Part shown: piece by piece, positions 5,030 through 63,610 of the stretch
How positions within the stretch are numbered: position 1 is the stretch's first letter
How the letters are laid out: each line of letters opens with the position of its first letter
Assembly: GCA_973895155.1 (NCBI GenBank)
Contig: OZ316893.1
Location: 2,192,420 to 2,256,419, forward strand
DNA from: Marsupella aquatica
Lineage: Eukaryota; Plantae; Marchantiophyta
Direction of reading: 5' to 3'
Length of the DNA: 64,000 nucleotides
Notes under the pieces: generated by a model
Seen by the model: only the letters and a program-made list of their open reading frames with translations
Databases searched by the model: none
What the model was told of the DNA's origin: nothing
Position numbers and translations under genes: made by a program

Positions 5030-5600
5030 TTTCTAGCTTACGCTGGACTTGTTGCCAGGCCAAGGATTCATACAAAGGGAAGGTGTAGATTATAATGAGG
5101 TTTTCAAGCCTACTGTTAAGTAGTCAACAACACAACTATTTTGTGCACTTCTTGCGGAGTTGTCAAAACTTTACTCTATGGTACTTTGGAAAAAGTAATC
5201 TTTATGAAATAAGCACTTGGTTCTGCGAAGAAACACCAAGAGCATTTGATTTGGAGACCATCAAGGTAGATTGCTTCCTTGTATGAATTAAAGCAATCTC
5301 CCAAGATAGTGGAATTAATGGTTTACTATCTTATTTTTTGCATTATAATCTAACAGGGCATGTTTGATCCTTGTGTCTATTTGAAGCCTTTGAATAATGG
5401 CATCTATGCCACTATTATTCTATTATTAATTTGATGACATTATTATTGCAACAATAATAAAATGAGCAAGAAAATGAAGACATTTTGTTGGGCATTACTA
5501 GGCACAAAGTTTTAAATGAATAACAGAGGCCCAACAAAGAGGAGAGGATTTGGGGATGGAGATCACAAGGGACTTTAAGAATGATGAACAATTATATATC
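5030..5600 (+). pseudogene. Decayed Ty1/copia reverse transcriptase fragment
   Basis: Frameshifted motifs in canonical order: GFIQREGVDYNEVF (~5064-5105), LYELKQSP (~5279; consensus LYGLKQSP), FDPCVY (~5363), LGMEITRD (~5551). Confidence 0.85.
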
Positions 5601-5652: not shown

Positions 5653-7590
5653 TTTTTTTAAAGGGTAGCAGTGCGTCCGTTTATTCCAGAGGCCACCGTG
5701 GCAAAGACCAGCAGGGCACAAAAAAACAACAAACGCAGAGGGCCAATGCACGCAAGTACCACACTTAAAGGGGCAAATCCACCCAAAGAAAACACCCTAA
5801 ACACTACCACCCCACACAAAGGATGACATGCAAAAACAAGGGCTGCCCACCCAACAGAAGGCAAGAGCCCTGAAATAAAGCACCTCACAAAAGAGGAGTT
5901 GGCTGTCCCCTAGGCAACAGCAAGTCCCCAAAAAAAAGGATCAAAGGGGGAGCATGGTCATCGCATCTCCCGGTCAATCATAGTAATGATGTCACTGAGT
6001 GTTTGACTTAGCCATCGAGCCTTTTGTACACTGGTAGTACATTGAAGTGTAGCGTGAACAGTTACTGCAGCTCCATGGAGAATGAGATGCAATGGTAACC
6101 GAGCAGAGTTAGCTCAAAAAGTGCATTGGCAACGCTCCAACCATTTGCTACAAATCATCGTGTGAATAAGAAGAAGGAAACCAGGGTTGCATTTTTGGGA
6201 CCTAATCGCAGTATCAAGCTTGCCAAAGAAAGAGCAGCCTGCAGCCTTGCCTAGACTAGTGCCCACGGCTGTGTGCCCAAGTTGCATCCATCATGCCATG
6301 GGTAAAGCTGACAGCAATCATAGAACATATGTTCAACTGTTTCACTGGCCTCTTTACACGCAGTGCACAGTCCATCACTCTCGTCCCATTTAAGAGCACG
6401 AGAGTTCAAGGAAAACCCAGCGTGAAGCACCTTCCAAAAATCTAGCTTAACACTAGGAGAGGATAAACCTGTCCATCGATGGATCCACCTACTCCTCCAT
6501 ATCACATGTGAATCAAGAGAGACCCAACGGCAATTGAGTTGTGTAATGGGAGGCATAGGCTGTTGCAAGATGGTGGCCCAGGTTTTAGTGGGAAGATTCC
6601 ACCCTTTTTTAACTCCCGTCTGCCATGTCCACGTCCACCCATCAGAGTTACGCAAAAGCCCTTCTATGAACGCCTTGGAGCTGTTCAATAAAGCAAGGAG
6701 ATATGGGAGCAGTTGCAAGGTCAGGCCGAAGTGATGAAGCCCAGCCTGAATCTGGTCGATAGTTTTCCAGCCCTGGCCATGGGTGACAAGATCCGCCGCT
6801 GTGTGGATTTGCCGAGTAGTCAAAAAAAATTACAGTCCCGCAGCTCCTGCTCTGTGGCATTCAGGGAACTCTTCAATACAAGAAAAGTTGGTCAATTGAG
6901 AGATAAGTGGGGATTTTGCCATCACTAGGATGAAAGTCAAGATTGCAGTGAGTAGACTCCCCACCCCGCGCCCTAAGCATGGAATAATAGTAGGAGCAGA
7001 AAAAAATTTCAGACAAGGAGAGAGGAGGAGGAGATCACTAGGATCCCAAAATTCCCGCTCCTTTTTAAATGGGCCTTTCCTAGCAGTGAAATTGAGCAAG
7101 AACCACGACATGTCCACCCCTGCAGTATCAAACCCAGTGAGAAGCTTGGTGAGGTTCCTCATGTTACACGCTTGAGATTGCAGCTCAAACGGTCGAAGAG
7201 CTAGCCACCCTTCATCATAAGGGCAGGAGATAGCGTCTCAAGCAAAAAGAGCTTTTTTTGTTGGCACCATCGAGAGTTTGGCCCCACAAGAAAATATGAC
7301 ATATCTTTCAAGTTGCTTATACCTGGCTAGTCTTTTGATTATTAAGCAACATGAGATGATACACAGGAATAGGACGGAGGACATGCTTCAACAGGACCAG
7401 ATGACCAGCCTGTGAGAGTGTCCAATTGGTCCAATGCTGTAGATGATTTCTGACCTTGCCCATGAGAAACTCAGTCTCCTGTGCGGGTCAAAGGCCAGTT
7501 CCAATGGGACAGCCCAGGTAGGTAATAAGCTCCCCCTTCCTAGCAATGCAAGAACCAGAGCGCTCAATCCATTCAGGACTCTCAGAATTA
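5653..7590 (-). mobile_element. 5'-truncated LINE (L1-type; post-RT region, zf-RVT, 3' UTR, poly-A)
   Basis: TSD TCTTAGGTAT at 5643-5652 and 7591-7600, with a poly-T run at the left end. Minus-strand motifs include YLGCPIG, LSQAGHLVLLKHVL and the zf-RVT FWKVLHAGF...CTACKEASETVEHMFYDC. Disrupted by frameshifts and stops. Confidence 0.88.
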
Positions 7591-18061: not shown

Positions 18062-20245
18062 TGGTGCGAGGGACGACGGGGCAAGCCGCAACCATCATTC
18101 GTCGTCAACGACGGCAACGACGGCAGATCCGTAGGAGCAGCAGCATCCTTTTGCTGGCACACAACTTTCCACGGCCTTTCTTGCTGCCTTGTTCTTCGTT
18201 CTTCTGTCTCCCGTCCCTTCCGGTCCCGTCCCGTCCAGACCTCCCGTCCCGTCCCGTCCAGAATAGAATAGAAGAGAAGAGAAGAGGCTATCGTGTAGTA
18301 GATTCGTTCGTCGTCATGGATAGAATAGAAGAAAAGAGAAGAGAAGAGAGGAGTGTGGAATTGCATTTATAGATAGGTTTCGAATTGGCGAGGGGCGGGT
18401 AGTCGCGTTGATGGCCCTCCGTCTGGCCGGTTAGGCGGGTTTGGGCTAATAATAATAATGATTAAGATTGCGGTGGGGCGTGGGGACTGGGGAGGACTCC
18501 AGGAGAGAGGGACACAGGGCGAGAAAGACACAGGTGCGACGACGACGGAGGAGTGCAGCGTACCGAGGAAGGAAGGACAGTGTAGTGACGAAAATCGGAT
18601 CGGGCGGAGAGAGCAAGTGAAGATTTGATTGATATGATGAGGGTGATGATGAGGGTGGTGGCGGTGGTGGTGGAAGAGGAGGAAGGAAAGGGGAGGAGTG
18701 CGCAGGCGGCGTGGGCGCTTGATGTAAGAATGGAGAATGGGTGGTGGGTGTAGGGACGATTGCTTATGTTGCAAATCGTCGGGTGACGGTCGGACTAGCT
18801 TGGGAGGTTGAGTGCAGTGCGTGCGGATAGAGGAATGGAGCGAGGCACCTGACGAGTCCGGAAGGGAATCGTGGTCGATGCTATTTGGTTGTAGTGGTGG
18901 ATTGATACTACGGTTTTATTATAGGAGTGGTCGACGACGACGACGAAGAAGAAGAAGCTTGCGATCAGCTCCAACTCTCCAAGACATGGTTGCTTCCGGA
19001 GATGGTGGAAGTGGAGCTGGTGGGGGGACATGATTAGATAGCTAGTTCTGGTTTATCTCTTTACTTTGTGGAGCAGTTCAGTCTGGCATGGCAGGCCCGG
19101 CCGACCGTTTGACCGTGAGCGCTCTGTGCACAGTGAAGTAGCCCGCTGTCATTGTCTTATCTTATAACAGTTTCGTCGGACTGCGATGTGAACGACACGA
19201 CTCGGGGGTTGCCGAGGACGCCTTTCACGAACTTCACGAGCCCGTTCTACCTGGATCTCTGAATTATTGTCTGACTGAAACTCGACGTTCGAGTGTAGTT
19301 CGTTGGTCGGACAGGGAATCATGTAGTCAATCTATATGGTCGTATGCGGTCGGCGGTGGTTAGCCGGATGGCAGCTTAGGCGGACCACCACTGCGCGGGA
19401 TTGGGACCAGACTGGCAAGGAAGCGTTCTGGCTAGAGGTGTGCGTGGTAAACAGTCTTCGAGCGAAGCTCTTGGAACTTTAGGAGTGCGAGAAATTTTTC
19501 AGCTACCGCAGGTTTAGAGCAATCAGGACCCAAGTGATTTCAATTCAACTTCTTTCATGTATACTTTTCCAGGAAACGATTACCGCTTTCCGTTGCCTGT
19601 CCGAAGAAGCGGTCCGCTCGGTTGGGGTCTTACAAATTTGCGCCAACAACTCTTCACAATTACGTAATAGGTATCCAGTTTTGCGATAGCTCCTCTTCTC
19701 AGTAATCTCATCTCTCCACTTATTAGGCAGGCACGATCGCTTCTCAAACGAAGCGTGAAGCAATGCACATGCAGACCTAGCAACAGTGTCGAGAAGGCGT
19801 TACCAGGGACAGACTATTACGCCTGCCTAGTTTAGGAAGAGCACATTCATTCCGCACGTTCTCTAGACTGTTCTTTGGACTTTATGAATCTGTCCAAAGG
19901 AGATTCTGATTTGGGTGAAAGTTTGTGTTCGCTACTGCGGGGAACGGGTTTGAGGTTGGTCGAAACTAACAGTCATAATTGGAGAGTATGTGTGTGAAAG
20001 TGGGTCTTGGTACTTGAGAATGGACAGCTCATTTGACATCTACAATCGGGTTTTTGCAGTCCTCGGAAGACACCTGAAACCGCTGCACCGGAGACCCAAG
20101 GTTTGGAAGGTGGTAGGTTCTACTGGGCAATGCTCTGTTGCAGGCCTGTGAGAGAAGGTAAGGTAAGGGTGAGTATCATGCTGAATGGATTACACAGACG
20201 GGACTGACGACACGCCACAAGCGGCCAGCATTGTAGGGGCAGAAC

Positions 20246-22503
20246 ATGGCCGTTTGTGGATTGTTGTCAATGCTTTGTGTGTCTCCCATTCAACCTGATA
20301 TGGACTCTTGCCCAGGCCACTCTTCTGGACCTACGAGAAATCATCTCACATTTTGGCAGTCTGGTGTTGGACCACGAGCGTCTTCTTGTCTCTCGTCGAC
20401 TATGGTCGACCGCAACGACCCTGACGATTCCGGATCATCTCAACCTCCCACTCCCACTCGCACTCGCTCGGAATCCAAGTCGCACATGGTCATTCGTGAT
20501 AGCTCCCTACCTGGGCATGAACTCGAGCTATCCATAAGTTTGAATGACGCACAGCGACGCACTCCTTCAAGGGCGAAATCTGTGAAAGACGAATTTGATT
20601 TGACTTCTGCAAGTACTATTTCAAGGGACGATACATTCGGACGATCTGGTGGCCTCGAGGAAGAAGGCTCATTTTCAGGTCCTCCTCGGAAGCGTGCGCG
20701 GACAAGCCCGATAGGATTTAGATTAGAAGAAACTCAAGCAGAGAATGTACGTGAGCAGCAGCAACGGTATCCAGTAGTGTCAACGAGTAGCGCTGGAACG
20801 GGGGTGCACAGTTTGATGCAAAGTATATCGTTGCCATCATTCCGTTCAACTGAAAGAGACCCCAGTCCGAGTCCAAGCCGGGGCGCATCAAGCGGGAGTA
20901 AGCCCCCGATGTCGTGGTGGTTAGGGCCTGGTCCAAAGAATTCTGCCATGATTCCGAACGAAATACAGCAAGGGTTTCACTCTTCTGTTCAAGAGCCACC
21001 GCGTGGAAATTTTTCTATCGACGGACGGGGCATGATACCTGGGACGTCCCTGCAAGAGAGGGATTTCCCATTCAAGGAGCCATCGTATTACCCTAATATG
21101 CTCAGTAGTATGGAAACATCCGAACAGGTCCGAAGAGGGGAGGATGCTATCTCACCGGCGGGAGGAAGGCCAAAGGATCAAAGGCGTCCTCAAGCAGCAG
21201 CCCTTCCGGATGTTCCCGAGCATTCCTTCTTTTCTAGGAAAGAAAGCTCTACATCGCGAGTAAGTAGTACTTCGACGGGAAGCGAAGAGACGGTCCCAAG
21301 GCCGGGCGCTGCATTCTTTGGCAGAAATAGAGAGGCATCCCTCCAGCAGGACCCCAATACTTTATATGGGCAGCAGAACCAACAACAGCAACACCCATTT
21401 GAACTTCAAGGAGGGAGGAGAAGGTATACGACTGCATCTGAATCTCAGCAAGTGGACCTCGAAAGGGAACCCCCGCACGGTAGCGTTGTCAGGCTACAGC
21501 AAGTCGAGCAACAAAGGGTTTCACCTCAAGGTGATCAGAGATCTTTGCCTGGTCCGACCGGTGGGAATGCAAATACCACATTTTACGCTCGGATTCTCGA
21601 TGCCGCGCAACAGCCTGCTTCAAGCCCTTTCTCCGAAGGGGGTGGATATCCGGGTGCTTTCAATACAAGCCTTGGCTTCAATCTCGCAGGACAGTCGCTC
21701 CCTCCTCGGGCATCTTCTCAATCAGGCGCTGGCCAAGTTCAATTCGGTGGCGAAGCAGCTAACTTGAATCTTGCGCAGAAGCAAGCGAACAGTGAAGCTC
21801 TACGCAATCTCTTGGCTGCCCATCCCAGTACAAGTTCTATTCCTCCATTCATGTCTCAACAAGTCCCAACTCCTGAACCAGGGCTCCGATTGAGTTTCCC
21901 CAATCTTAGTTCCTTAGACTTTTTGCAGTCTCTTCAACAACGACAATCCTTCCCTCCTCAAGGAATGGACAGGCACAGGCATTCCGCACCGCCGGGGCAC
22001 GTGGTGGGGAATCATCCACAGCCACAAGGGTTTTCATTTCTTGGTGCTCCACAATCCTCACAGCACAGTCTACCTGCCGAATTAAGCCCTCCTCTACCTC
22101 CTCGTGGCCGTCAGCCTGGCAATTTGCAAGCTTCGGCAGGTCTTCGAGATTTTTTGTCTCCTCAAGCTCCAAAAGGAGCATCCTCTCTAGGTTTAGGGCG
22201 GGGTCCGGCAACTGGACCGCAGGAGATTCCGACGCATCTGTCGTTGCAAGCCCCTGAGCTACCGCCTCCCGTGACGGTTGTCATGGAAGGACGATCTATT
22301 GGTCGACGGATCAGTCTAAATGATTACGAGGGATACGACAGGTTCGCAGCAGCAATGAGGATGATGTTCGATAGTCATTTCTCTTCTCATGAGCTTCCTG
22401 CCCCAGAAGGGAATTGCACTCTAGTGAATGCAATTCCTGGATATGTTATCGCATACGAGGATGAGGAAGGAGATGTTCTCCTCGCTGGCGATCTACCTTG
22501 GAG
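20246..22503 (+). CDS. ncIAA: Non-canonical Aux/IAA (IAA33-like), large coding exon; true start may be the ATG at 20402
   Basis: The 753-codon ORF ends in PPVTVVMEGRSIGRRISL...NAIPGYVIAYEDEEGDVLLAGDLPWR, closely matching the PB1 domain (III/IV) of Arabidopsis IAA33-type proteins. No GWPP degron. NLS-like PPRKRAR at ~20681. Donor AG|GTAAAT at 22503/22504. Confidence 0.9.
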
Positions 22504-22675
22504 GTAAATTACTTCATTCGATCTCGGTTTAATTTCTTGTGCTGTTAAATCTTTTGTCCCGACTCCGACTTGAATGTGTCGAGGGTCTTGCTTTTCTATC
22601 ACTGTGAAGCTGCTCACACCAAACTTACAGTCCGATGGTTGGTTAAAGCTAGCTCTTTGCATTGTCCGAACGCAG

Positions 22676-32059: not shown

Positions 32060-34010
32060 AACTCGGGCCCACCAGAAACTGCATCCAGTGTGTCACAAGT
32101 GGCGAGTTGGGGCATGCATTAGCAGCCTCAGTCCTGTCTTGCCAAAATGTATGTGGATGGAGGAATCATCCAATATCTTTTCTGGATACATCTCTTGTCA
32201 ATGTTCACTTGCCATTGATGGTCAATCTCCACTCATTGGAATTGGTTGGAACAGGTCTTCTGAGCAGCTATGTTTGACATTCAATATCCCCCACTCCATA
32301 CTAATGGAAGAGGCTATTTTTGAAGCTGCTATATGGTGAATGCACATCTCAGATTTTGTCTTATTCAATTTTTTGTGTAATGTATTTTCATTTCAATCTG
32401 CCTTATCAAGGGGCAGCCTTTGTATTCTATACATTTTTAATTTATTTTTAGACCCCTTTAGTTTTAGGTATTCTAGAGTGTTTTGAACTTATTTTGGCAG
32501 CCCCCTTTCACAGTATGTGTTTGCTTAGAGATGAAACCAAAGGCTCCACCACCACGAGTGAGAGAAATGATGCTGAAGAACATGAATGCTTAGCCTCTTA
32601 AGTTCTTCTCGTGTTTTTCTTTCCTAGGTTTATGGTTTTTATTGAAAGGAGTATCATTCATAAGGCACCCTGAGTTAAGTGCACACATAGTAGCATCTTT
32701 TGATTGTACCTTTTCTTGGTCACTGTGCTTTTCTTGGTATACACTTTACTTATATAACAGCACATCTATGCTCTCATATGTTATTTATTTTCAGATCACT
32801 ACAAGACAAAAAATAAAGCATGTTCCAGGATGAGCATGCTATATCCCCCACTCCATACTAATGGAAGAGGCTATTTTTTAGCTCATTAGAATTGGCTTGG
32901 AAATATGTTTTCAGTGAGCCTAGTACAACAAAATTCATTGACAATTGAGAAACATGAATTTCCAAAAATGACTTTCCTGTTTTCTTGTCACATTTGACTC
33001 ACCTATGTCATATGATATAGCACATAATATGAATTTGCTGCAAAAATACTCCTGGTTATGTCTGTTTACACACTTGAATAAAGGAAACCGTAAACAAAAC
33101 CTAGCCAAAAAATGTTACTAAGGGGTTCAGGCACTCCGGGCTTCAGTGAAATGAGGTGCCCAAGGGGCAATACTTCTTACTAGAGTGGCTGATACAGGCT
33201 ACATGGTAAACCCATACTTCCATAACAATCCGCATGTAAATAGTAAAATTGTCACAAAGAAAAGCTGTCTTAAAATGGTTTGATTGTGAGCTCTTTCCTC
33301 AACCAGGTCATGGGAAATTTGTAACTCGCGCTCCAGGCTCACCAGAAGCTGCCTCCAGGAAGCCACAAGTGGCAAGTTGGGGCATGCACTACTAGTGCCT
33401 CCAGCATGTCAGAAGTGGAGTTGGGGCATGCAGTAGCAGCCTCAGCCCTGTCTCGGCAAACTGTGTGTGGATGGCATCAATCATCCAATCTCATTTCTGC
33501 GTATATCTCTTGTCAATGTTTGCAGTTGGGGCATGCAATAGCAGCCTCGGCCCTGTCTCGGCAAACTGTGTGTGGATAGCATCAATCATCCAATCTCACT
33601 CATCCAATCTCACTCATTCGAAGTGGCTTGGGAGTATCTTTTCAGTGAGCCTAACATACTAAAAATTTGTTGAGAATTCAGAAACATGAATTTCCAAAGA
33701 TAAATATCTGATTTTTCTTGTCACATTTCACTCACCCATGTCATATCTTAACAATATAATATTTAATTGCTCCAAGAATGTTCCCAGTGGTCTCTTTGAA
33801 TAAAGAGAACAAAACTTAGCCCTTAAATTCCAAGGGTTTCTGGCACTGTGTATATTGATTGAAATGTGTGCTCAAGTGCGGGCCCAAGTGACAGTACTTA
33901 TTACGAAGTGGCTGATACAGAGTGTACCTGTACTGCCATCAGAATCCGCACATGAAAGGGTAAAATTGCCAACAACAAAATAAATGTGTTTCTTCTAAAG
34001 GTTTGGATGT
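32060..34010. repeat. Nested local duplications
   Basis: The block GTTGGGGCATGCA..AGCAGCCTC..CCTGTCT..TGTGGAT..ATCATCCAAT occurs at ~32106, ~33420 and ~33525. The block TTTTCAGTGAGCCTA...GAAACATGAATTTCCAAA...TTCTTGTCACATTT...GTGGCTGATACAG occurs at ~32908 and ~33639. ATATCCCCCACTCCATACTAATGGAAGAGGCTATTTTT occurs at ~32284 and ~32841. Confidence 0.8.
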
Positions 34011-36616: not shown

Positions 36617-37438
36617 ACTACCGAACATATGTTTTTTAGCTGCAGCACTGTTCAAAACCGGTGGAGAGAGAGGTGTGCACTCTATTGCATGGATCGGACG
36701 CGATGCAGATTGACACGGGATCCCTTTATGACATCATCTATACTGCTATCAAGAGGCACAAGAGGAGACCTGGCCCCCTTGTCTTAATTATGGAGATGTG
36801 CTCAAGCATTTGGAAGGAGAGAAATGCAGCCACTTACACACAATTCCTGGGGAGACTCCCGGGATGGGTGGTATTACGGCAAACCGCCACACATCTTCTT
36901 GCCATGCTTGATGTCAGCAGATCAGAAAACAAAAGGAGACAATTGAGGAAAGCTATCAGTCAACTCCAAGTGGTTTCGCAACCCTGGGAGACTGTGGAGA
37001 GCCCACGTTCAATCTGCATGGACGATAATGATGACTGACAGGATGTTTTTTTGCGCTAGTAGCCAACACCTTAAGTGTGTGGGACATATTGGTTGGCATT
37101 GCGCTCGCAAGAGCGAGAAGCCCAAGAGGGGTAATAGCCAGGAGAATAATCATGACTGGAAGCATCTCAATGAGGACACCAATGATAAGTGTCAGCTTAG
37201 GGGTAATACTCGAAAACATAGGATTCATAGAGAGGGAAAGGAGAAGTGTAGTTTGATGAATTCCAGGATCTCTAGGGTGGAGAATCTGTGGTGGCATTGT
37301 TGGGCTCTCTGGCCTGACTAGGGTTGGTGTTTCTGGGGTCTCTGGCCCGGGTGTTGGGCCCCTTTGTTTTCTTCCGGGTGGCTTTTGTCCCCATGCTTGT
37401 TATTGATGGGCCCTGCGCTCCCCTTTTTTGAAAAAAAA
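36617..37438 (+). mobile_element. Strongly 5'-truncated LINE 3' end
   Basis: TSD AATGACT(C/T)GAA at 36606-36616 and 37439-37449, with poly-A at 37431-37440. Coding remnant TEHMFFSC...IWKERNA matches the LINE ORF2 C-terminus. Confidence 0.85.
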
Positions 37439-41499: not shown

Positions 41500-42230
41500 T
41501 AATGTGTACGGTAAAGCAATAGAGTAATGGGTGGGGGGAAAGCTTGTCAGATATTATTAAAGAGGCAACTGTGGAAACGCATTAGGCTTTATTCAACGCA
41601 TAAAGTAAGGAAATAGAGTAAATGGTGGGAAAAAGCTCGCATACAGTATATAGAAAGGCAACATATTGAGCTATATTTAATGTCTGGAATAATGAAATAG
41701 AGTAAAGGGTAAGATAATAAAGCTTGCACATACAGTATACTGAAAAGGGGGCAACTCTTTACCCTATATGTAATGAGTAGAGTTAGGAAATAGAGTAAAG
41801 GGTGGGAAAACAGCTTGTTACGTACAGTCCATTAAAACAGGGCAACTCGCTCGGTTATATCAATGTCAAATTGAGGAAATAAAGTAGAGGGTGGGAAAAA
41901 GGTGTATATTTGAAAAAGGGAACTCATTCATTACGCCATACTTAACGTATAGGGTAAAGAAACAAGAGTAAAGGGTAGGAGATGCTCTTATTATTTTCAT
42001 ATTTCATAAGTGAGAGATGTTAGTATTTAAAAAAAAGGCAGCTCGTTAGGTTCTATTCAATATTCAGTGTATGGAAATGGAGTACGGTGTGGGAAAAAAA
42101 AGGTATATTAATAGGCAACTCATTCATTACGCTATATTTACTTGTACAAAGCAAAAAAACAACGTGAAGGGTTAGAGATGGTTTCATTACTTACATATTT
42201 CAATAGGTGGGAGGGATATGGAGTCCACCT
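41500..42230. repeat. Diverged tandem array, about 8 units of ~81-115 bp
   Basis: Core AAATAGAGTAAAGGGTGGGAAAAAGCTTG...GGCAACT recurs at ~41518, 41611, 41695, 41788, 41877, 41960, 42075 and 42156. Confidence 0.85.
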
Positions 42231-43364: not shown

Positions 43365-43874
43365 TTAGGTTTATCATGGTATGGAGTGACATAGTACGTC
43401 ATATTTCGTCACATGCTTGCCACAGGAGAGGTCAAAGTTGCTCTATTGTTGCATTTTCATATGCAATCAACTAGAGGCAGACAATAGGAGAGGTCAAAAT
43501 TGCGCTGGCATGGCCCAACCCAGTAATCATAGGAGATACTATGCTGTAGGCAGTGCACAATTTGTGTCATGAGTTGGTCACATTGGAAATTAATGTAGGG
43601 TGAAAGCTAGTATTTGTCAGGTGGCGAACAATTATAAGTTTATGCACACTGATGATGACACAGTTGTGTAGCAAAGCTACTGTAGAATGATTCAGATCCG
43701 GGCTAAATAAGGAAGTGATGTGCCTCCATGGTGCAAAGATAGCCTAGTGAGCGAAGGCGGCTGAATCTGCTCTCAACATACTCATCACTCCCCCTGCACA
43801 ATTCCAAATCAAGCTACCGAAGAATGACAGTAGCTTTCGATGGAAAGGAATTCGAAGAAGTAGAAGAAAAGTTC

Positions 43875-45235
43875 ATGGAAGCTAAGCTTCCTTGTGGAAC
43901 CCTATTCATCTGGGAATTCAAGGTACAACGCAATCACATCACATCATGCTGGCAGCAGTTTTGTGACATTTCCACACCAGTCAGAACCTTCAAGGTCATG
44001 AATGGGGTCCTGCATAAGATTGCTACATCAGCCCCCCCATCAGACACAACCTTACATCGTGTGGTGACCAGATCCCACAGGACCACTGGCCCCCATCACT
44101 TGCGCATTGGGCGACCAACCAATCTATTGGCTATGCTACTCCAATATGAATGGAAGGACGGAACTCCATTCCTGGAGACTAACACTGCTCATCTCAGGGA
44201 GGTCCAGGGCCCACTCAGGACAACAACTCACAAGGCGGTAAGGAAGTGGGCAATTCAACTGAATTGGACCCCCAACCTGAAGATGTTGTGGGCTAATACT
44301 TGGATTCCATACAGGGCTGCGAATGAGAATTGTTTCTTATGGCAATTAATCTACAGGATACCAGCTACACATCACTGGCGCCTACCGACTCTTCCACCGA
44401 CGGATCCCGACACATGGTGCACTAGATGTACTCTTAATCAGCACGAAGACCTGGTTCATTGCATATGGAGTTGCCCAGTCTCAGAATCAGTCTGGTCATG
44501 GGTCCAGTACGTTCTACAGAAGGCGGCAACCACCAGCAACAGCAGCATTCAACTCCAACCGGCTCACATTTTTGTTGGGGCTCCTCTGCCTGATTTCTGG
44601 GATGTACCAGAGAAATTATGGCATACCCTACGGGCCATTACTTGCTGGTACATTTGGAAGGATCGCAACTCACATTGCATCGAACTTACTAGATCGAAGG
44701 CAAGGACAGTAATTCAGATGTCTTGGCACCGCCTCAGTGTGTACCTCCGTCGAGATTGGTCTAATCACAAGTCCAGAATTCAGTCTGGCAAGTCCTCTTT
44801 TGCAGATGCGTTCAATGACATGTCTGTCAACGATGGGACCTGGGCTGGGCTGTGGGATATCCACGAGGAGATACTCCAAGTGCCACCAGTTCCCCCACGC
44901 CCGCCATGAATCACCTGTGTGTTCAGGTTGGGGAGCTTTGCTGCAGGTTAGGCCGATAGTTTTTTTGCGACTCTATCACGGATCCACTGATGGGTACCTT
45001 GCCGGTTCCCTGTTCACTGGCCGGTCTTTGGGGGTTTTGCCGCTCCTTCTGCAGTTGTTAAATTTCTTGTTTAGCTCCCATTCTGGGATTGCTTCTTCCC
45101 TGGTGCCGGCCCCCCCGGCTTGTGTGGCTTAATGACCTCCGGGTCCATCTGGGTGCCGACCCCCTTTGTGGGCCACCCCCATTGTATGTTGGCTTTTTGA
45201 ATGAAATTCAATTGGTTTTTTTCGAGGCAAAAAAA
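43875..45235 (+). mobile_element. Young 5'-truncated LINE with an intact ORF2 C-terminal frame (zf-RVT)
   Basis: Perfect 13-bp TSD AGAAGAAAAGTTC at 43862-43874 and 45236-45248, with an A-tail. The frame is uninterrupted to 44909 and contains FLWQLIYR...WCTRCTLNQHEDLVHCIWSCP...WYIWKDRN. Confidence 0.9.
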
Positions 45236-53129: not shown

Positions 53130-53745
53130 TACTCTCCCTACTCTGTTTCTTCCCTCTCAAATTCACATTGCCAAACAGAGGGCAGCAACAGAGCAACAGA
53201 TCACTCTCGCCACAGACTCCTTTGTTTCTATCCGTCTCCAATCCAATTCAATTTTCTTCCCCCAATCCAATTCACATTGCCGAAAAGAGGGGAGCAAGGA
53301 GAGAGTAAGCCCCGAAAAGAGGCCAGCAACAAATTACACCACTCTCGCTACAGAGCTTCTTCCCTCTCCAGTTCACCTTGCCGAAGCGAGACGAGCAACA
53401 GATTACTCTCGCCACAGATTCCTTTGTTTCTTCCGTCTCCAATTCAATTCAATTTTCTTCCATCTCCAATCTAATTCACATTGCCAAAAAGAGGGGAGCA
53501 AGGAGACACTAAGCCCCGTTTCTTCCGTCTCTAATCCAATTCAATTTTCCTCCATCCCCAATCTAATTCACATTGTAAGCCCGTTTCTTCCGTCTCTGAT
53601 ATAATTCACTTTCCCTCCATCCCCAATCTACTTCACATTGTAAGCCCCGTTTCTTCCGTCTCTAAACCCAATTCAATTTTTCTTCCACACCCAATCGAAT
53701 TCACATGGCCCAAAAGAGGGGAGCAAGGAGAGAGTAAGCCCCGTT
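53130..53745. repeat. Modular tandem array (TTTCTTCCGTCTC.AAT.CAATTCAATTTTC / AATTCACATTG / AAAAGAGGGGAGCAAGGAGA)
   Basis: The modules recur 4-6 times in varying combinations (~60-bp and ~190-bp periods). Confidence 0.85.
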
Positions 53746-53954
53746 CTGTTACGAGGTCAAGGTGACCCGTTGAGTGCATTACTGTGCTGCAGCCAGCTGC
53801 TCCTGAGCAGCAATCAGCAGGAATGCTCGACCGAAGTGTCCTCACAAGCCACTGATTGCTGCGGATGGAGTTTCTTCCCTCTCGGGATGACACTCTCTGC
53901 CCGACTGCAGCATGTGAGCTGCAGAAGCTCGGGGACTTTCTCTCGGCAAGATTT

Positions 53955-54700
53955 TAGACATTGATAGAGTTCATCATCCCCTACTAGAGGAATTCCTCGT
54001 TAGAATGCCGAAGCACTCGTTCTCCTTGCAGATGGCAAACTCAACAAAATGGGAATACCTATACCCCATTTTTGGACAGAGAACTAAGCTTATGGTTTTT
54101 TTTAGTCCTGTCCTTGACAATTAGACAAAGGTAGGGGGGTGGGGTTTTCATAGTCCCTGGGCTAAGGCAAACGCATCAAGATTTGGACATTGATAGAGTT
54201 TATTCATTCACTAGAGGAGTTCCTTGTTAGAATGCAGAAGCACTCATTCTCCTTGCAGATGGCAAACCCAAGAAAATGGGAACAAATCGAGGCACTCATT
54301 CTCCTTGTGGTTGGATCTCTCAAGGACATGATAATGGATATACCCCACTTTGGACAGAAAGCTAAGCTTGTGGTCTTTATAATTGTATAGTGGTATACTC
54401 CTAGCCAAAGGGAGTAGGAGTGGGGGTTCTCATATTCGCCTGGGCTAAGACAAAGACATTCACAAGGTTTTACGAGAATGGCAAAAGATATAGGGATGGC
54501 ACTTTCTACCGGACTAGAGTGTAATTTGCTGGAGCTCGGAGAATTTCCCTCAGTGTGGGATTGACGACACAATAAACCCCATTTTGGATAGAACACTAAG
54601 CTTATGGCTTTTATAATCCTATAGGTATACTCCTAGACAAAGGTAGTGGGAGGAGCTCTCATGATCTCCTGGGCTAAGACAAAGACATTCACAATGAAGA
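53955..54700 (+). repeat. Left arm of foldback-like host: ~230-280-bp tandem units
   Basis: ACCCCA(T/C)TTTGGA(C/T)AGA..CTAAGCTT(A/G)TGG...CCTGGGCTAAG occurs at ~54062, ~54342 and ~54576. Confidence 0.8.
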
Positions 54701-56222
54701 AAAGCTTGATGAGATTCAAAGAATTGGGGTATAGACTACAGACATTGTGAAAGACTGGAATTGCACCCACAAAAATGAAGAAAAGCCTGATGTGGGGATG
54801 AATAATGGCCAGAAGGTCAATTCCCCAATTGAACACTTAAGAGTGGGGCCTGGTGATCAGCTCAAGTAGTGAGGGGCAATTTGTAAGGTTGTAAGCTCTT
54901 AAAAGCTTATCAAATCTGTGTTGTGGCTGCCCATTGTGTGTGTAACTCCTCTTTGTCCCAAGGGACACGCCTATGCTATGAACCAAGAGTGTATGTGATA
55001 AGTAGGACCCTGACTGGATATTTGTTATCACATGGAAATTACTTGTCTGCGGAAGAAAAAAGAATATTATCAATTTCTGACAACACTAATAACTAATCTG
55101 CCATTGAAGGCATGATGGACGGATGCTCACTTCCCCTTGGGCTCATGTCCTCACATCCCATTAAGCCCCCTCTCCAGTACTTTTTTATACTTTTAAATTA
55201 GTTAGTAATTTTAATTACATTTGAATTGGTTAGTGAGAGGACAAGCATTGACTTCCTAGAGAATTATGACATTTCTTGTGTACATAAGATATTACAACAC
55301 ACTTGGTTTTGGTTTCTAAGAAGTGCCCCCCCAACCTTTGTCTAGGAGGATAATGTGAGATAAGGATGTTTATGAAAGAAGGTTAACTAACCGTAAATTT
55401 TAGAATTTTTAAGTTTAAGATCTCTAATGAGGCTGAAAAGGGACCTGAAGACTATTTTGAAGTGGTATGAGACTTTCAAGCCCATCTGAGGTCAACCCGG
55501 ATTGTTATTAGAGAAGGAGGATCGACCCGAAACTTTTTACTATAAGCCGTGATGAGATATAAAAGCTTACAACACGACTCTACTGAACAACAGCTGTCCA
55601 TTGCCAAAGTTTTTAAAACCATAAGTCAAACACAAGCACGACCACAGCAGAATCCGGATATAAGGAAGGAGAGTCGATCCGGCCTCTCTCACCTCTCAAA
55701 GCCAAACATAGTAGGTTTTGAGCTCTCGAGCGCATTAGGCTGTTTAAGCAGTAGATTGAGGAGGCTATACCCTTTTGGTAGAGGATCTTGGGTCCGGATT
55801 ATAGGACCAATCTTGCATTGCATGATGAGAGCCTGGATATGAAGGTACTGACTGATTTGTTGTGAGGGGAATGCCTACTCCACCACTGGGAGTGAAAGCA
55901 GGAATTTTGAAGATCCTGATCGTGGATACATCGGTTGTGAGAAGGGCGGCCAAGTCGATCCAGACATCCCCATTGCAGGCCCGATTAAGTCTAGCTTTTC
56001 CCCAAGTTCAATGCACCTGCATTGTGGTTGACGGAATCTTGATACACTTCTCCAGAAAAGCTTGTCAGTTGATCAGAAACGCTACGGCCAGGTCGACCCG
56101 GATATTTCTACCATTGGTCGACACCGAAGCGATTGATCATTCTGAAGTCGCAGAATTGTAGAGCTCGCCGTAGAGGAGGCAGACCATTTATTGGAAATCA
56201 ATTTGTTGCTTCCAGCAATCCT

Positions 56223-57822
56223 ATGGAGCAAGGGGCGGATCCAGCCAGAATGTCCACTTCTCGCGTTTCTAAGGGTCATTCAACCTCAACATCACCTGCA
56301 CCCACTCCGGTTAAAGCCCCTGTGAGACGATCAAAGAGAAAGGAGGTCCCCATTGCCATGAAAATTCTGAGGCCAACTATTCCGGACAATGAAGCTGAGA
56401 AGGTCAAATTGAGGGAGTCTTTGCTCAGGATGGGCTGTGAGTCTCTGATGGAGCTACCCTGGAGTTATTAGAGGGAAGATATGATCAGAGAGATCCGATC
56501 CAAGGAGTGTCCGGCTGAGTTTAAGGATACCTCCAGAGGCCGACCTGAGCGATGGACTCAGATGATGGTTGTAGGAGCTTTTGTATTAGAGGATGAAGGA
56601 GAAGGTCCAGTGGGGAGAGCTGTCAATCTAATCTTTCCTTACTTCAAAGGAGCCATCAACAGTAAGGACGGGTTCAATGTTTCTAAGTGTTTGGATCCTG
56701 ATCTGAAATGAGTCTTCAGCTTCCTGCTACCCCTGCTGTATCCTGAGAAGCCAAGAAGAGTTATTGTTGGAGTTGGCTCTACCATTGTTGCTGCTTACAA
56801 GGGAGAAAGAAAAGTCAACTGGGCTAAGCTTATCTTTGATCTGATAAGGAAGTTGGTACAGAACCTGTCCAACAAGGGTCCTACTCCTCTCTCCTGCTAC
56901 CTGGTACATTTATATAGCTTTGAAGGAGTCTTGTTTAGAGAGGAGAAGAAGTTACTATTGGCCAAGTTCAACTTCATAAAGTATGGAGAGGCAGATCCAG
57001 ATATCACCCAGGCCACCTCTGATGACAGTGAGGATGAGGAACCAGCAGAGACAAATCCTCGAAAGACCCGGTCTGCTGCCCGGAACCTCGACCCGGACTT
57101 TGCCGAGCCGGCCTTCATCGACTCGGCTGAATTTCCGGATGCACTCGGCCATGCCTCCCAAGACACCCTAGCTGGTTTCCAGATCATCTCAGACACATTC
57201 CAGAAGGTGAAGAGGAAGATCACTGTGATGGAGAAGGTCATCACTGACATTTCTCAAAAGTTAGGAGTGAAACCAGGGTAGATTCTTGAAAAGATCTCCA
57301 CCATGAGTGATGCCACAGATAAGAGGAGGTTGGAGAAGGAGAATGAGTTCCTCAAGAAGAAGGTATCTGAACTCAAACAACAGTTGGAAAGGAGTAAAAA
57401 GAAGAATGAGCTTGAGCATACTCTCCAACTCAGTATCACTCAAGAAGAAGGTATCTAAACTCAAACAACAGTTGGAAAGGAGTAAGAAGAAGAATGAGCT
57501 TGAGCATACTCTCCAACTCAGTATCACTCAATCTTTGGATCTGATTGAACCTTTGACTAAGATAGTTTCTCTGGATCTTCTTAAGGCCCAGATTTATGAT
57601 GAGTATTTGGCCAAGAACACCACACCCATCCTTTTCTCCAAGATTAACCATTTAGTGGTAGATGTGAGTGCCAAGGTGGATGATGCACTTGCAGGCCTCT
57701 CAAAGACCTGTGAAGCCTTAAGGGAGATGAGTGACTTGACTACAGAGGAGCTATTAGCTGATATTGAGATTCCTCCCTTTACTACCAGGTCTTTCTCTCC
57801 TAGTCCTCATGAAGGAGTCTAA
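56223..57822 (+). pseudogene. Decayed ~503-codon retroelement-associated ORF with coiled-coil C-terminus
   Basis: One continuous frame is broken by TAG 56469, TGA 56709, TAG 57279 and an 88-bp duplication. After removing the duplication, 1512 nt = 504 codons. Motifs GCESLMELPW, RGRPERWT, KDGF...C, LLYPEKP, KVNWAKLI and LSCYLVHLY recall repetitive hypothetical proteins of bryophyte genomes (from memory, unverified). Confidence 0.75.
57353..57528 (+). repeat. 88-bp tandem duplication causing a frameshift
   Basis: CAAGAAGAAGGTATCT...CAGTATCACT occurs at 57353-57440 and 57441-57528 with 2 mismatches and CTCAA microhomology at the junctions. Confidence 0.92.
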
Positions 57823-59045
57823 TTCCACTGGCCCCTCATCACCCCTCAACCCTCCTGGTTTCCCCACTCCCAGTACACACTTCCACTCCCATTCTTACAC
57901 TTATTCTCATGACCCAAGTGCTCACCAGGAGAACATGGATATTGACCCGTCCATCCCTTTTACCACTGGCCAGCAAGGAGTTTTCCTTCGACCAGAACCC
58001 CTTGCCATGGCTAACCCTGAGGAGGTTCCTTACCAAAAGCTAGGACCATAATAGAGTTATATTTAGAGAGTTGGAGCCACATTAGTTTAGACCTAGAAAT
58101 AGCTATATAGATTAGTATATGAGTAAGTAGACTCCAGTATTTTGTTTATGTAGTTATTGGAGACTCTACTCCATTTTTTACTAGGGTAGCTTACATTTGT
58201 TTACATATTCCTTTAGACTTGAGTTTTGATAAGGCATGTCTTTTCATAATTCCCTCTTTTAGTATAAAAGGAGGAGAACTCGAAGTCAAAGAGGGAGAGA
58301 AAATATACATTTGATTTCCTCATTGCCTTTGAAGGAATCTATGTCTTTTCTTCCCTTCTTTTTACTATGGTTGAGTAAAAGGAAGAAATTTAGCAACCCT
58401 TGAGTTGTTGTGAAGTGTTCAATGAATGCTAGAGTGTGCCTTAATGATATTGGAAGATCAATGAGGTTTGTGACCAATACATTTGGAAGATTCACCAAAG
58501 AGGAAATTGACATTTGCACAAAACTCAAACAAGCAATCTTAAGGATTGTAGGAGAAGTAAGCCAATTCGAGTATCCGAGTACCGTCCTTAACAAGACCAG
58601 AAAAGTGTCCCGGGTTGATTTACATTCATGTCTTCTAAATTCAATAGATGGAGAAGAGTTGCTACGAGAAAATCAAAAAGCATAGAAAATGTTGATTTCT
58701 GAATCTTAAATTAGGCCATAATCCTTATTGAAGGAGTGGTGATGGTCAGAAATTCAATTCCCTTGTATTTGAAACCTCCTATCTACTCTCCCTCTAGTTT
58801 CAATCTTTGTTAATTCTAGTCTTTATTATTGCACTGTGAATCCTAAGGATTACCCACTTGAGTTGTGGTTAAACGCTTGTGTTAAGAAGATCATTAGAAA
58901 TCTCTCCAACCTAGATAATGTTGGTGAAAACTTCTCAAATTATGTTAATTTGGTCTTTTTGATCTCATCCACTCCTAATCGGAACAAAATCGAGTTGTTA
59001 AGGAGTAAATAGTCATTTATCTCTTTATCACCTTGCTACAGATAA

Positions 59046-59459
59046 GACTACATGACTATGAGCACGATGAAATTAGTTTTCTGCCCAAAATGGGGTATAT
59101 TATTAGCTCCCATGTCCTTCCCTCACTCACCTGCAAGGAGAAATAGTACTTGGGTTGGTTAACTAGATTATCCTGTAAGTGATGAAGAACTCTATGAATA
59201 TCAAACTCTCACCAAGCTCCAGCATTGTACATTGTAGTCGGGTAGAAACTACTTCTTTTGCCATTTTTTGAAAACCTTGTGAATACCTTTGTCTTAGCCT
59301 AGGGGAATATGAGAAACGACACCCCTACATCTGCCTAGGAGTACATCTGCCTAGGAGTACACCACTATAGGGCTATAAAAACCACAAGCTTGATTTTCTG
59401 TCCAAAATGGGGTATATTTGTTACCATGTCCTTGAGAGATCCAATTGCAAGGAGAATAA
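59046..59459 (-). repeat. Right (inverted) arm of foldback-like host
   Basis: The reverse complement of 59210-59459 aligns with ~54297-54540 (ATTCTCCTTG..TTGGATCTCTCAAGGACATG...ATACCCCATTTTGGACAGAAA...GCTAAGACAAAG..ATTCACAAGGTTTT...GCTGGAGCT). The arm continues after 63963. Confidence 0.85.
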
Positions 59460-59953
59460 GAGTTGTGTTCCATCAGCCCTGAATCGCAATACCCTTAACG
59501 TCCAAGTAGTCAGGAGCCAATGAGAACTCTCTAATATTTCAGGGTGATCCTCAAGTTGACGTGCAGGGTGGAAGGCCAGTCTAGCCTTCCACCCTACTTT
59601 GAGTGCCCTGAAGATGACCGGGAACTGGCGATAGTGGGTTGCACCCAACGTGACGACTTGTTATCTCCGGTGGCAACAAATAGTTCGGACGGTGTGCATG
59701 GACATTGGCAAACATCGATGTCCCACTCAAGGCATGGCGGTAGCGCCTAGTTTTTCTACTTGCGCCCAATACAGACATTCCGCCATGGATTTTCAACGTA
59801 AATTTCCAGTATATTGCTTGCACTTCGATTGCAACCAAGCACCTTCATCCAAATCTTGCTACTATTCTGCTCAAGGCGTTCAACTTGCTTTTGCCTGGTT
59901 CTACTGTGATTTAGTGAATTATGGATACATAGTCGACAAACCACAGCACCACA

Positions 59954-60883
59954 ATGGCTGGAACTGAGGAGGCGCACAATGCACCTACAAATGTCAATGT
60001 TATCCGTCTTCCAGAGCAATTCTCCAGGAGGCAGTGGAAAATGCATGAGCTATGTCTGCTCATTGCTGCCAAGCGATTAGAGCACGAATTTTCTTTGAAC
60101 AACAGCTCCAAGGAAAGGATAAGAACTGCTGATCAGAAATGGAGAGATATCCAATCCGCCCTTGCTAGAGATGGGGTCTTACGAGTTTCTATGCAGATAA
60201 AGAAACGATGGGAGAAATTGGTTACAGATTTTAAAAAGGTTTATGATTATCAGAATCATGTCGGTAGCGGACAGCCAAGCTACTACGAGATGGCGAGTGA
60301 GGAAAGGAAGACCAGGAAGCTTCCCATGAATTTTGCTCATGAGCTATTCGAGAGTATGGAACCTTGGATGGGGACTCAGAGAGCCATTAATCCATCTCCA
60401 AATCAAGTGGTGGATACTGGAAATGTGCAGGAGGAGGCTCACAATGAGAGCGAGCAGACCCCTGAAGGACCAGCTAGCAAAATTTTGGGGAACGACATGG
60501 AGGTCGATTCTCCTCCACCTGTTCGAATGGAACCCTCCTCTACAGGAGCTGATGCAGCACAACGTCGAACACCACCTATAGGACTTGAGGACAAAGGCAT
60601 CAAGAAAAGTTGAAGAGACAGACTCGACGACCAATTCAAAAAGACAAGTGCTAACTTCTTGGAATTTCTGTGAAAAGACTCAGAGCGCAAAAGTAGACTA
60701 GAGGAAACAAATAGAAACTGGGAGAAGGACAAGCACGATAGTGTTATAACATTGGATTTAAAAAAGCATCAAGACATTTTAGACCAACAATCTAAGATGA
60801 CTGATGCGATGGCAAATACAATTGGTGGAATTTCTCACTCCATTCGGTTCTTTGCAACGGAGGTAGCACGTAGATTAGAGTAA
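59954..60883 (+). pseudogene. Harbinger ORF1, Myb/SANT (trihelix-like) DNA-binding protein
   Basis: RQWKMHELCLLI...KWRDIQSAL...QIKKRWEKLVTDFKKVYDY. The same frame continues past TGA at 60611 and 60671 (both likely from CGA) through a coiled-coil region to TAA at 60881. Confidence 0.85.
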
Positions 60884-61888
60884 TTTAATAGGTTTGTGTG
60901 CCAGCACAATGTTTTAAAACTGCTGGAATCGTGTTTTGGCTTTCCATGAATGATGTTCAAGTTTTTGATGAGTTATTTGTAATTTTTGTCCTTGACTTTT
61001 CTGTGTTGTCTTGCATTGCGGCTGCATTGCAATTTTTTCTAGCAATAAATGGCTCCTTGGAAACAGAGAAAGCATCAATGAAGCCCTAAGCAGTATGATA
61101 CTATCTCAATCAGTAAGCTTCCAGTGAGATTGGTTTTTGGAAGTCGGAAAAGGACTTTGGGCCATCCCAAATTCACCATGGACAAATCCCTAGAAATATT
61201 ATAATTTTCTAATGTGAGGGATTTTGAACTTTACACAGTTCCAAATTGGCTCAATTGTCAAGAGTCAGTCAGGTTCCTGACCTGTCCACAATCTTTTTCC
61301 TTCCGATTGTATTATTGATGAATATGATTGTTATTTGAGGGGAGCCACCAAAGTGAGGAGAAATGGGCCAAGACGCAACGGAAGCAGTCAAAGAGACATG
61401 GAAGAGCATTGGGATTGATGCACAACTAATTTGAATAGCCAGCAACCACATGGAAGGCATCAAGCTCATGGCATATAAAATACTTCTAGAAAGTGACGTG
61501 AACTAAAAGCACAGGTGACACTTTGCAGACCTTTTGGTAATAAAGGTGACTCTCATTCCTAAAAAATCTGGTAAAGAAAAACTTATCATCACAACAGCAA
61601 AGAGAGCGTAGGTGCAACTTGAACCTATGGAATGCCATGTGTGATGCCAGAATCCAAATAACCACTTTATAGAGTACTGTGATAGGCATGTGCTCATTGT
61701 AAAGGTGTCTTTGCAAAAGAAAGTTGCAAAATAAGCCAGCTGACATTGAATTGAATGTATAAAAAACCTCATGAAAGCGCTTTTTCAGGTAGTCTTTTGT
61801 GAATCAATCTCCCTTTCTTGCAAAAATAACTGGCGTACAAAAAGGATTTCTAGATTATGCTAGTTGAAGTGCAGGATTGGAGCTCAAT

Positions 61889-63610
61889 CTAGGGTACCCT
61901 TGCCCTTGCGCTCCTTCTCTGGTCTAGAATGTCAACCTCATTAAGCAGATTGTCCCGTGCTTCTGGCCCTCCTTCCATGTATTCTCGTTTGGGCACATGT
62001 ACTCCACTGTATCCACCAGGGTGAGCTTGTTGAACTAAGACGTCATTCGCAATGACCATACAACCATGACTCATTCCATGCACACATAGTCGAGACAATC
62101 TCTACGTGGTTCACCTCTTCTCTAAGGCTACGTCCACACGAACACTCAAGCTTTTACTTCAAGAGTAGACGAACACACATGCTCTCCCTCTTCCTCAAGT
62201 TGCTTCGTTACAATAAGTAAGCACCACACACCCCAGCGGCTTACACTAGCCCTGGTATATACAAGGTCACACACAACTAATCTAACCTTAACTAAGACCC
62301 TAACTGTGGTTGGTCTAAGTGCCGTAACCTTTGAGTCACAAGACTAAGAGCAATCCTTAATAGAGCTGTAATCCCCCGAATCAGCTCAGGGCTAATGTGC
62401 TCACCATGGTGAATAAGAAAGTTGTGGAGAATGCAACAAGCGTAAATCATAGACCCGATCCTATCTTTTCTTGGTTTCCAAAGAATTCGGCTAAGGATTC
62501 TCCAGGTACCTTTCAGTTGTCCAAATGCTCGTTCCACTGCCATTCGTGCTTGAGAATGTCGATGGTTCCATCTGTCGTGTTCATCAGATAAACCATTTGT
62601 GAAAGGGACAATCAACCATGGATACAAGGGATATCCTGCATCCCCAATAATGTACTCCCTCAACACGGAGGTGTCATCTTGACATAAATACTCCAAGCCA
62701 TGCAGCCTTGTACGTATATATTCAACATCTCTAAAGAAGGTAGAAACTCTAAGCAATCTGGTATCTTGTATGCTACCTGGCCAACCTGCTACAACATCCA
62801 AGAACCTGAGGTTAAGATCCACAATGGCCTGCATAGAAACCGACATTTTTTTCTTGAAATCAAAGTAATCCTGGCTATGCTCTGAGGCTGGCAGTTCAAC
62901 TGGGAAATGTGTGTTATCGACTGCCCCACAATAGTTGGGGAAACCCCATCGTGCAATGAACTCCAATTTCACTTTTTCAAGCTGTGTTGCACTCGGCCAT
63001 TGATCAGATGTCTCCCTTGCTTGATTATTGCTTGAATAAACTTCCAGGTGACCTTGACTATAGTTGCATGAGAAACTCCAAACAGCTCCCCGATCCCAAG
63101 ACATTGATCTCCTGTGGAAAGCCTTCTAGTTGCAATAGCCACCTGCCTCTCGACAGAGAGTTTTCTATTTGGCAGTGTACAGAATGCTGTCGGTGGATTT
63201 GTGACCATGTCCCCATGAACCATCTCACATATTGCATAAAACGTCCCGGGGCTAACACGGAAAAATTCCTTGAATCTATCAGGATCATCGTAAGGAACAA
63301 AGTCAATAAACAGATAAAACCACTGGATGGTTCTAGGTTCAATGTACCAGGGGCAATCAATCTCTCTTTTTCTCATGAAATAGCTTCTCAGAACTTGAAT
63401 GAAGGCCCACACTTGCGGCCAAATCTCATCATCATCACGACGTCTTTTCCTTGACTCGAAATTGAACACTCTATTCAGCTATGATGGATTTGTGAGCCTC
63501 CCAATATGAAGCCCAGGAAGAAGCGTAACAAGAATTGGCATAGACGTTGTTGCATAGCTCATCACCAATGCAGCCAGGGAATCTAGCAGAACCTCATCTT
63601 CAAATTCCAT
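61889..63610 (-). pseudogene. Harbinger DDE transposase (HARBI1/DDE_Tnp_4 family)
   Basis: Motifs FKEFFRVS, GAVDNTH, QAIVD, GWPGSIQD, GDAGYPL, VERAFGQLK and CCILHNF. Start ATG at 63610. Disablements are an in-frame TAG at ~63480, a 1-nt frameshift near 63000 and a ~331-bp insertion before the C-terminal EARDNL segment. Confidence 0.92.

Follow-up and report, generated by a model that had tools for sequence, protein, structure and literature searches.

A probable Ty3/gypsy solo long terminal repeat in a liverwort that may carry a gene for a VANC21-like self-regulator

Can a plant retrotransposon keep a protein-coding gene inside its long terminal repeat (LTR), and what would such a gene do? 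The question is raised by a 64,000-nt stretch of the liverwort Marsupella aquatica (assembly GCA_973895155.1, contig OZ316893.1, positions 2,192,420 to 2,256,419; hereafter the window), in which a 3687-nt element at 55354..59040 on the plus strand holds a broken gene at 56223..58051. An earlier note, made from the letters alone, had proposed that the element is one LTR with an open reading frame (ORF) upstream of its TATA box. Our analysis suggests, with a probability of roughly 55%, that it is a Ty3/gypsy solo LTR whose gene encodes a VANC21-like self-regulator binding its own motif.

The element starts with TGT, ends with ACA and is bordered by a perfect GATAA target-site duplication (TSD; 55349..55353 and 59041..59045). 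When one GATAA is deleted, the joined flanks form a further member of a host repeat and match four others within the window (identity 67-73%, E 2e-13 to 4e-11) across the join, which indicates a clean insertion. The insertion target (53940-55350 and 59046-59470) is a diverged ~230-300-nt repeat, present around the element in several copies of both orientations that are 65-83% alike. The TSD of this single insertion, 5 nt long, differs from the 4-nt NCGN of the Phygy lineage (PMC6317226, supplement). In a self-comparison neither element end was repeated inside and no terminal inverted repeat extended beyond ~3 nt. The sole internal direct repeat was an 88-nt tandem duplication (57351-57438/57439-57526; units 98% alike), which shifts the frame and of which about one unit is skipped in some contigs of other copies; without this private duplication the element measures ~3.6 kb. 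Nine ORFs of the element had no Pfam match to gag, protease, reverse transcriptase (RT) or integrase, nor to any family at the Pfam cut-off, and a related gypsy pol used as tblastn query found no match within the window. No Rfam family matched in 55000-59400. A scan for a primer-binding site (PBS) with seven short motifs was negative in the element and in four related loci (L001-L004, below), and a polypurine tract (PPT) followed by TG was not found downstream of the ORF in the window element. The earlier note thus described the ends, the TSD, the rejoining host repeat and the lack of gag-pol domains correctly, and erred on internal direct repeats only in the 88-nt duplication.

Other copies were compared in contigs of four public runs (X1-X4) out of six containing part of the stretch; summed contig depth was not taken as copy number. 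In all four runs depth was 600-38,800 over 55335-59074, whereas the left flank had 0-223 and the 370 nt next to the element on its right had 10-192. Element depth was ~40- to several-hundred-fold that of the left flank and of the same order along the whole length. At their 5' end other copies read TGTGAGATG after differing letters, at loose ends of contigs. At the 3' end, depth in the thousands dropped to 10-105 no more than five bases from 59040, and long contigs of low depth matched up to 59040 and then continued into mutually unlike flanks (both in 3 of 3 runs); among the rows listed, the consensus beyond 59040 was a mixture of flanks. These data support the element as one unit with the same ends in many copies, as had been proposed. 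It is very probably a solo LTR left by LTR-LTR recombination, with the gene inside.

The gene begins 869 nt after the TGT, following a non-coding 5' part (55354..56222). The 503-aa ORF (1512 nt, 56223-57822) of the earlier note can be reconstructed, but this requires readthrough at an in-frame TAG (56469..56471), TGA (56709..56711) and TAG (57279..57281), and discounting one 88-nt unit. The TGA and the second TAG are sense codons in other copies, a comparison based on 40 of 489 rows listed. The proposed end did not hold. The base at 57821 is missing in most of the contig depth of other copies (5327 of 5327 in X1, 2631 of 4075 in X2, 5446 of 5694 in X3 and 788 of 788 in X4), so that the stop at 57820-57822 seems to be peculiar to the window copy. 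In the rest of the family the ORF likely continues to 58051 and would encode ~579 aa. The window copy itself is dead as a gene. The product of the family gene would have a basic N-terminal part, a folded domain, an acidic linker, a predicted coiled coil and, as in homologues, a tail rich in proline, serine and threonine. A TATAAA lies at 58263 (TATAAAAG, 58263..58270) and is a candidate LTR TATA box 3' of the gene, which would probably place the gene in the U3 region. Another TATAAA at 55558, in the non-coding 5' part, may serve as the promoter of the ORF.

Relatives of the ORF numbered 498 at the 50%-cluster level, 211 of them at E<=1e-10. Of 30 homologues examined, four had a species attached, Calypogeia fissa in each case, and most others came from short contigs. 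In a listing of 25 of 118 families, no member of an alignment of 100 reached the Pfam cut-off. Within the same listing there was no match to DUF1985 (every single-member match to E 0.043 included) or to the plant mobile domain (PMD, PF10536), which was also absent from the nine element ORFs. Transposase_32 (PF20167) matched one homologue at E 0.005, with 17.2 bits against a gathering score of 45. The relation to PMD or Athila proteins that the earlier note had raised is therefore not seen for PMD among the listed families, and for Athila amounts to a match below the cut-off. In the language-model Atlas, a C. fissa homologue adjoins Transposase_32 (23 of 30 named matches, similarity 0.90) and ATHILA clusters, which we take as a lead only. 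Profile searches against PDB sequences gave coiled-coil matches only, among the matches listed. An env-like protein was considered and rejected, as three sequences had no transmembrane stretch (highest 19-residue hydropathy 0.89-0.95). Many homologues lie on contigs of 2.5-3.9 kb.

In metagenomes, a first scan with a four-sequence alignment confirmed 0 of 598 pattern matches, and scans of viral contigs (0 of 2 and 0 of 39) and prokaryote genomes confirmed none. A second metagenome scan confirmed four of 110 candidates, L001-L004, the longest locus being 6092 nt. In L002, an intact RT-RNaseH-integrase frame ends at 2487 and is followed by the purine tract GAAAAAGGGG, TAA and a TGT at 2525; an intact 630-aa homologue begins 572 nt downstream of this TGT. 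The domain order without a chromodomain is that of non-chromovirus Ty3/gypsy elements, in a relative of the window family rather than that family itself. The best named full-coverage relatives of the L002 RT region were Riccia and Calypogeia proteins (61-67%), with angiosperm proteins at ~50%. L003 is 98% alike to L002 and has the identical pol-PPT-TGT junction. L004, from a different family, agrees with the LTR start of L002 in 22 of 28 positions and is colinear for ~170 nt; upstream of this start it has no purine tract (6 of 26 matches), and its ORF begins 701 nt in. An LTR-type boundary therefore lies 570-870 nt upstream of the gene in three families. The placement of the ORF inside the LTR is thus supported by a gypsy junction in a related family.

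Between L002 and L003, a single pair, the conserved domain differs by five synonymous and no replacement changes (p 0.0008), whereas the part after the domain shows a pN/pS of 0.64 that is not significant. Selection of the kind that the earlier note had proposed to look for is seen in the domain of this pair, and the constraint on the domain points to a working protein.

Several further observations were made on these loci. The LTR start of L002 (2525-2546) and L004 (27-48) forms an inverted repeat, TGTGGGA...TCCCACA, with differing loops; it is absent from the window family. The CCGGA-rich non-coding part of L002 3' of the ORF holds a 155-nt direct repeat (5440-5591/5690-5843, 74% alike). L001 has TATA-like boxes, read by eye, at ~379 and ~2385, ~215 nt 5' and ~130 nt 3' of the homologous ORF; with those at 55558 and 58263 in the window, they hint at two promoters per LTR. 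Close relatives of the L002 gag-pol (1316-1402 aa) lie on contigs 5.4-9.9 kb long, of which several measure near 6.0 or near 9.3-9.9 kb. Together with the 2.5-3.9 kb contigs of many ORF homologues, this is a circumstantial hint that assemblies end at LTRs of ~3.5 kb.

The conserved domain of ~220 aa (56340..57008) was modelled, and its predicted fold is nearest to VANC21 (PDB 9LNK), with which it aligns over ~190 residues at 11-13% identity. The single solved structure matching the model is a DNA-bound transposable element (TE) protein. Foldseek gave no match at E<=0.001 to the PDB or to viral models. VANC21 and MAIN are reported to be structural homologues (PMC13547354). The modelled domain probably shares a VANC/PMD-type fold by homology.

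CCGGA, counted on either strand, is the top enriched 5-mer of the window element (15 against 3.0 expected). Picked there post hoc, it recurred as the top 5-mer in three other families: L001 (49 against 10.7), L002 (117 against 20.7; L003, with 48 against 9.7, counts as the same family) and L004 (26 against 5.9). In host sequence of the window to the left of the element it is only 243rd among 512 5-mers. It shows no excess in the host window outside the element (52 against 53.8 expected) and is absent from 1167 nt of LINE-like and 3546 nt of Harbinger sequence; a genome-wide bias is therefore unlikely. Of 13 element regions tested, 11 had counts above those of all 200 dinucleotide shuffles, the exceptions being the last 1218 nt of the window element, with zero CCGGA, and the L004 ORF piece, whose count was reached by 2 of 200. 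In three coding regions, pol included, counts exceeded 500 of 500 synonymous-codon shuffles. The 5' part of the window element holds seven CCGGA/TCCGG against a shuffle mean of 1.1, several within a GTCGAYCCGGA-like context. Over the whole window GTCGAYCCGGA is not above chance (15 against 12.3); nine of the 15 occurrences, among them all five with at most one mismatch, fall inside the element, which is circular because the motif was derived from it.

These results can be joined in a mechanism. A liverwort Ty3/gypsy solo LTR would carry a complete, now broken gene with a predicted VANC21-like domain. Its protein would be a sequence-specific DNA-binding regulator of its own element, acting at CCGGA-containing motifs, and might be expressed via spliced genomic RNA or from a promoter lying within 870 nt of the element's start. 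Lying in the LTR, the gene would be present twice per insertion and kept once in each solo LTR, from which it could act in trans until decayed, as the window copy has. The weakest step is a relief of silencing in the VANC manner. The anti-silencing function that the earlier note had suggested gains support from the predicted structure and the motif; a VANC-like demethylation by this protein is rather improbable. Similarly tentative, and in our view improbable as a whole, is the wider proposal that a widespread bryophyte gypsy lineage took a VANC-like, sequence-specific gene against silencing into its LTR and spread a CCGGA target over its whole genome, pol included, so that each solo LTR would unite gene and target and could reactivate the family in trans.

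Several findings weigh against this interpretation. Trinucleotide shuffles weaken the CCGGA excess in four regions besides the CCGGA-free one, L001 has no clear boundary, and L002, which ends 3568 nt past its TGT with no recognisable terminus, has a second purine tract and TGT at 5361-5377, downstream of the ORF. All the architecture evidence would fit equally if the same solo LTR and gene encoded a protein with another job, such as chromatin or integration targeting or the binding of RNA or a host partner, CCGGA then being a host-factor site or a by-product of mutation or methylation bias. MAIN, with the same fold, functions in silencing (PMC13547354, PMC5418596), CGG-CCG is the core of motifs repeated in Sirevirus LTRs (PMC2829016), and one core is shared here by four families despite a likeness of no more than ~30-50% between their proteins; VANC motifs, in contrast, differ from family to family (PMC5735166). 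The lack of a CCGGA excess in host, LINE-like and Harbinger sequence and the DNA-bound structural match speak for a self-regulator instead, and we consider another job possible but not probable.

Two other accounts would remove the gene from the LTR altogether. Extra ORFs of the Athila type are usually found after pol and ahead of the 3' LTR (PMC7264820, PMC6317226), and the unit could be an internally deleted, non-autonomous derivative in which short LTR ends surround such an ORF and are amplified with it. The PPT-like tract 3' of the ORF in L002 fits this, as does the 3' continuation of other copies into mixed flanks with no readable PBS. An LTR element needs repeated ends for reverse transcription, however, and neither end is repeated internally here. 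The window element also lacks a PPT and TG 3' of the ORF and a PBS-like match, its depth shows no short high-copy ends, and the boundary lies upstream of the ORF in both L002 and L004, so that we regard a deleted derivative as improbable. Least credible is a non-autonomous DNA transposon with TG...CA ends (Ginger-like) and a captured VANC-like gene: the TGT...ACA ends, 5-nt TSD and missing LTR pair would suit it, and VANC is a DNA-transposon gene, but the terminal inverted repeat spans at most ~3 nt and a homologue stands next to a gypsy pol with a PPT.

Elsewhere in the window, a Harbinger-like pair occupies 59933-63478, with a Myb/SANT ORF on the plus strand (59933-60613; PF13837, E 3e-9) and, on the minus strand, a DDE_Tnp_4 nuclease (62292-63125; E 6e-34), whose upstream part (62969-63478) is read in a different frame. 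From ~59450 onward contig depth is again higher. A long ORF at 20237-22507 has a C-terminal AUX/IAA (PB1) region, whose nearest relatives over the region searched are from Calypogeia fissa (82%) and the ncIAA of Marchantia (62%), which makes a leafy liverwort the probable host. C-terminal remnants of LINE type lie at 6251-6829 (zf-RVT just below the cut-off), 36640-37038 and 43743-44909 (no Pfam match, by eye), and further diverged short-repeat arrays at 32066-33715, 41573-42097 and 53131-53745.

Word searches of the open-access literature, in which few subscription journals are covered, returned no description of a protein-coding gene inside a plant LTR. Neither such a gene nor anti-silencing by such a protein is described in the available parts of PMC7264820, PMC6317226, PMC13547354, PMC5735166, PMC5418596, PMC2829016, PMC11728184, PMC11963269, PMC12885004, PMC7466625, PMC10508981, PMC12859917 and 10.64898/2026.08.24.746577. 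Plant LTRs of up to ~5 kb are known and extra ORFs are grouped by their position 5' or 3' of the polyprotein (PMC6317226), their function being stated as unknown (PMC7264820, PMC11963269). The liverwort family offers a way to test this function, with a domain that is compact and modelled with confidence, a candidate target of 5 nt and intact homologues such as that of L002. Marchantia is a tractable model. An LTR location would also mean that many liverwort gene models termed 'unnamed' or 'hypothetical' are likely LTR sequence, and that solo-LTR formation, the usual host route of deleting such elements, leaves the gene in place.

Coding capacity within an LTR, doubled on insertion, is also found in retroviruses, whose U3 regions encode MMTV sag and HIV nef. 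The liverwort protein differs in being unrelated (no match in a viral structure library) and in being encoded by a plant retrotransposon, in a gene of ~580 codons lying entirely in the LTR. Sirevirus LTRs share a short, repeated, CG-containing motif, in the form of CGG-CCG boxes that precede the TATA box and lie close to an extra ORF, with their binder undescribed (PMC2829016). However, Sireviruses are Copia elements with palindromic, family-specific, clustered boxes, whereas the liverwort CCGGA is a dispersed 5-mer found throughout pol as well. The 3' extra ORFs of Athila (PF20167; ATHILA ORF-1, PF03078) are likewise sense ORFs 3' of pol in gypsy elements of non-chromovirus type, and are the nearest named Atlas clusters. 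By its sequence the liverwort protein reads as a distant relative of these, far under the Pfam cut-off (17.2 against 45 bits) and encoded beyond the PPT within the LTR rather than in the internal region. PMD proteins (MAIN/MAIL1 and PMD-A of Ogre) would share the fold via the homology of VANC21 and MAIN; the likeness runs through VANC21 and not from model to PMD, with no PF10536 match among the 25 families listed for 100 members. PMD-A is gypsy-encoded, PMD is described for angiosperms, and the ancestry of gypsy-borne and genic PMD is called fully open (PMC5418596).

The closest parallel is VANC21 of VANDAL21, a Mutator-like element of Arabidopsis. Both are TE-encoded accessory proteins with a coiled-coil region, alike over the ~190 residues of the predicted alignment, and in both cases a short motif has accumulated in the element; VANC21 and VANC6 bind 8-9-nt motifs enriched in the non-coding parts of their own transposons (PMC5735166). 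In contrast, the liverwort motif is found in coding DNA too, the identity is 11-13% with no DUF1985 match, and VANC proteins are dicot-specific by description (PMC13547354). VANC genes reside in VANDAL/Mutator DNA transposons, whereas the liverwort gene has LTR-type ends around it and a homologue beside a gypsy pol. By analogy, the protein may work like a VANC without being one. Should the wider proposal of an anti-silencing gene seeding its own target hold, retrotransposons would have a counterpart to the VANC system, and the VANC/PMD fold would have been present in them before the angiosperms.
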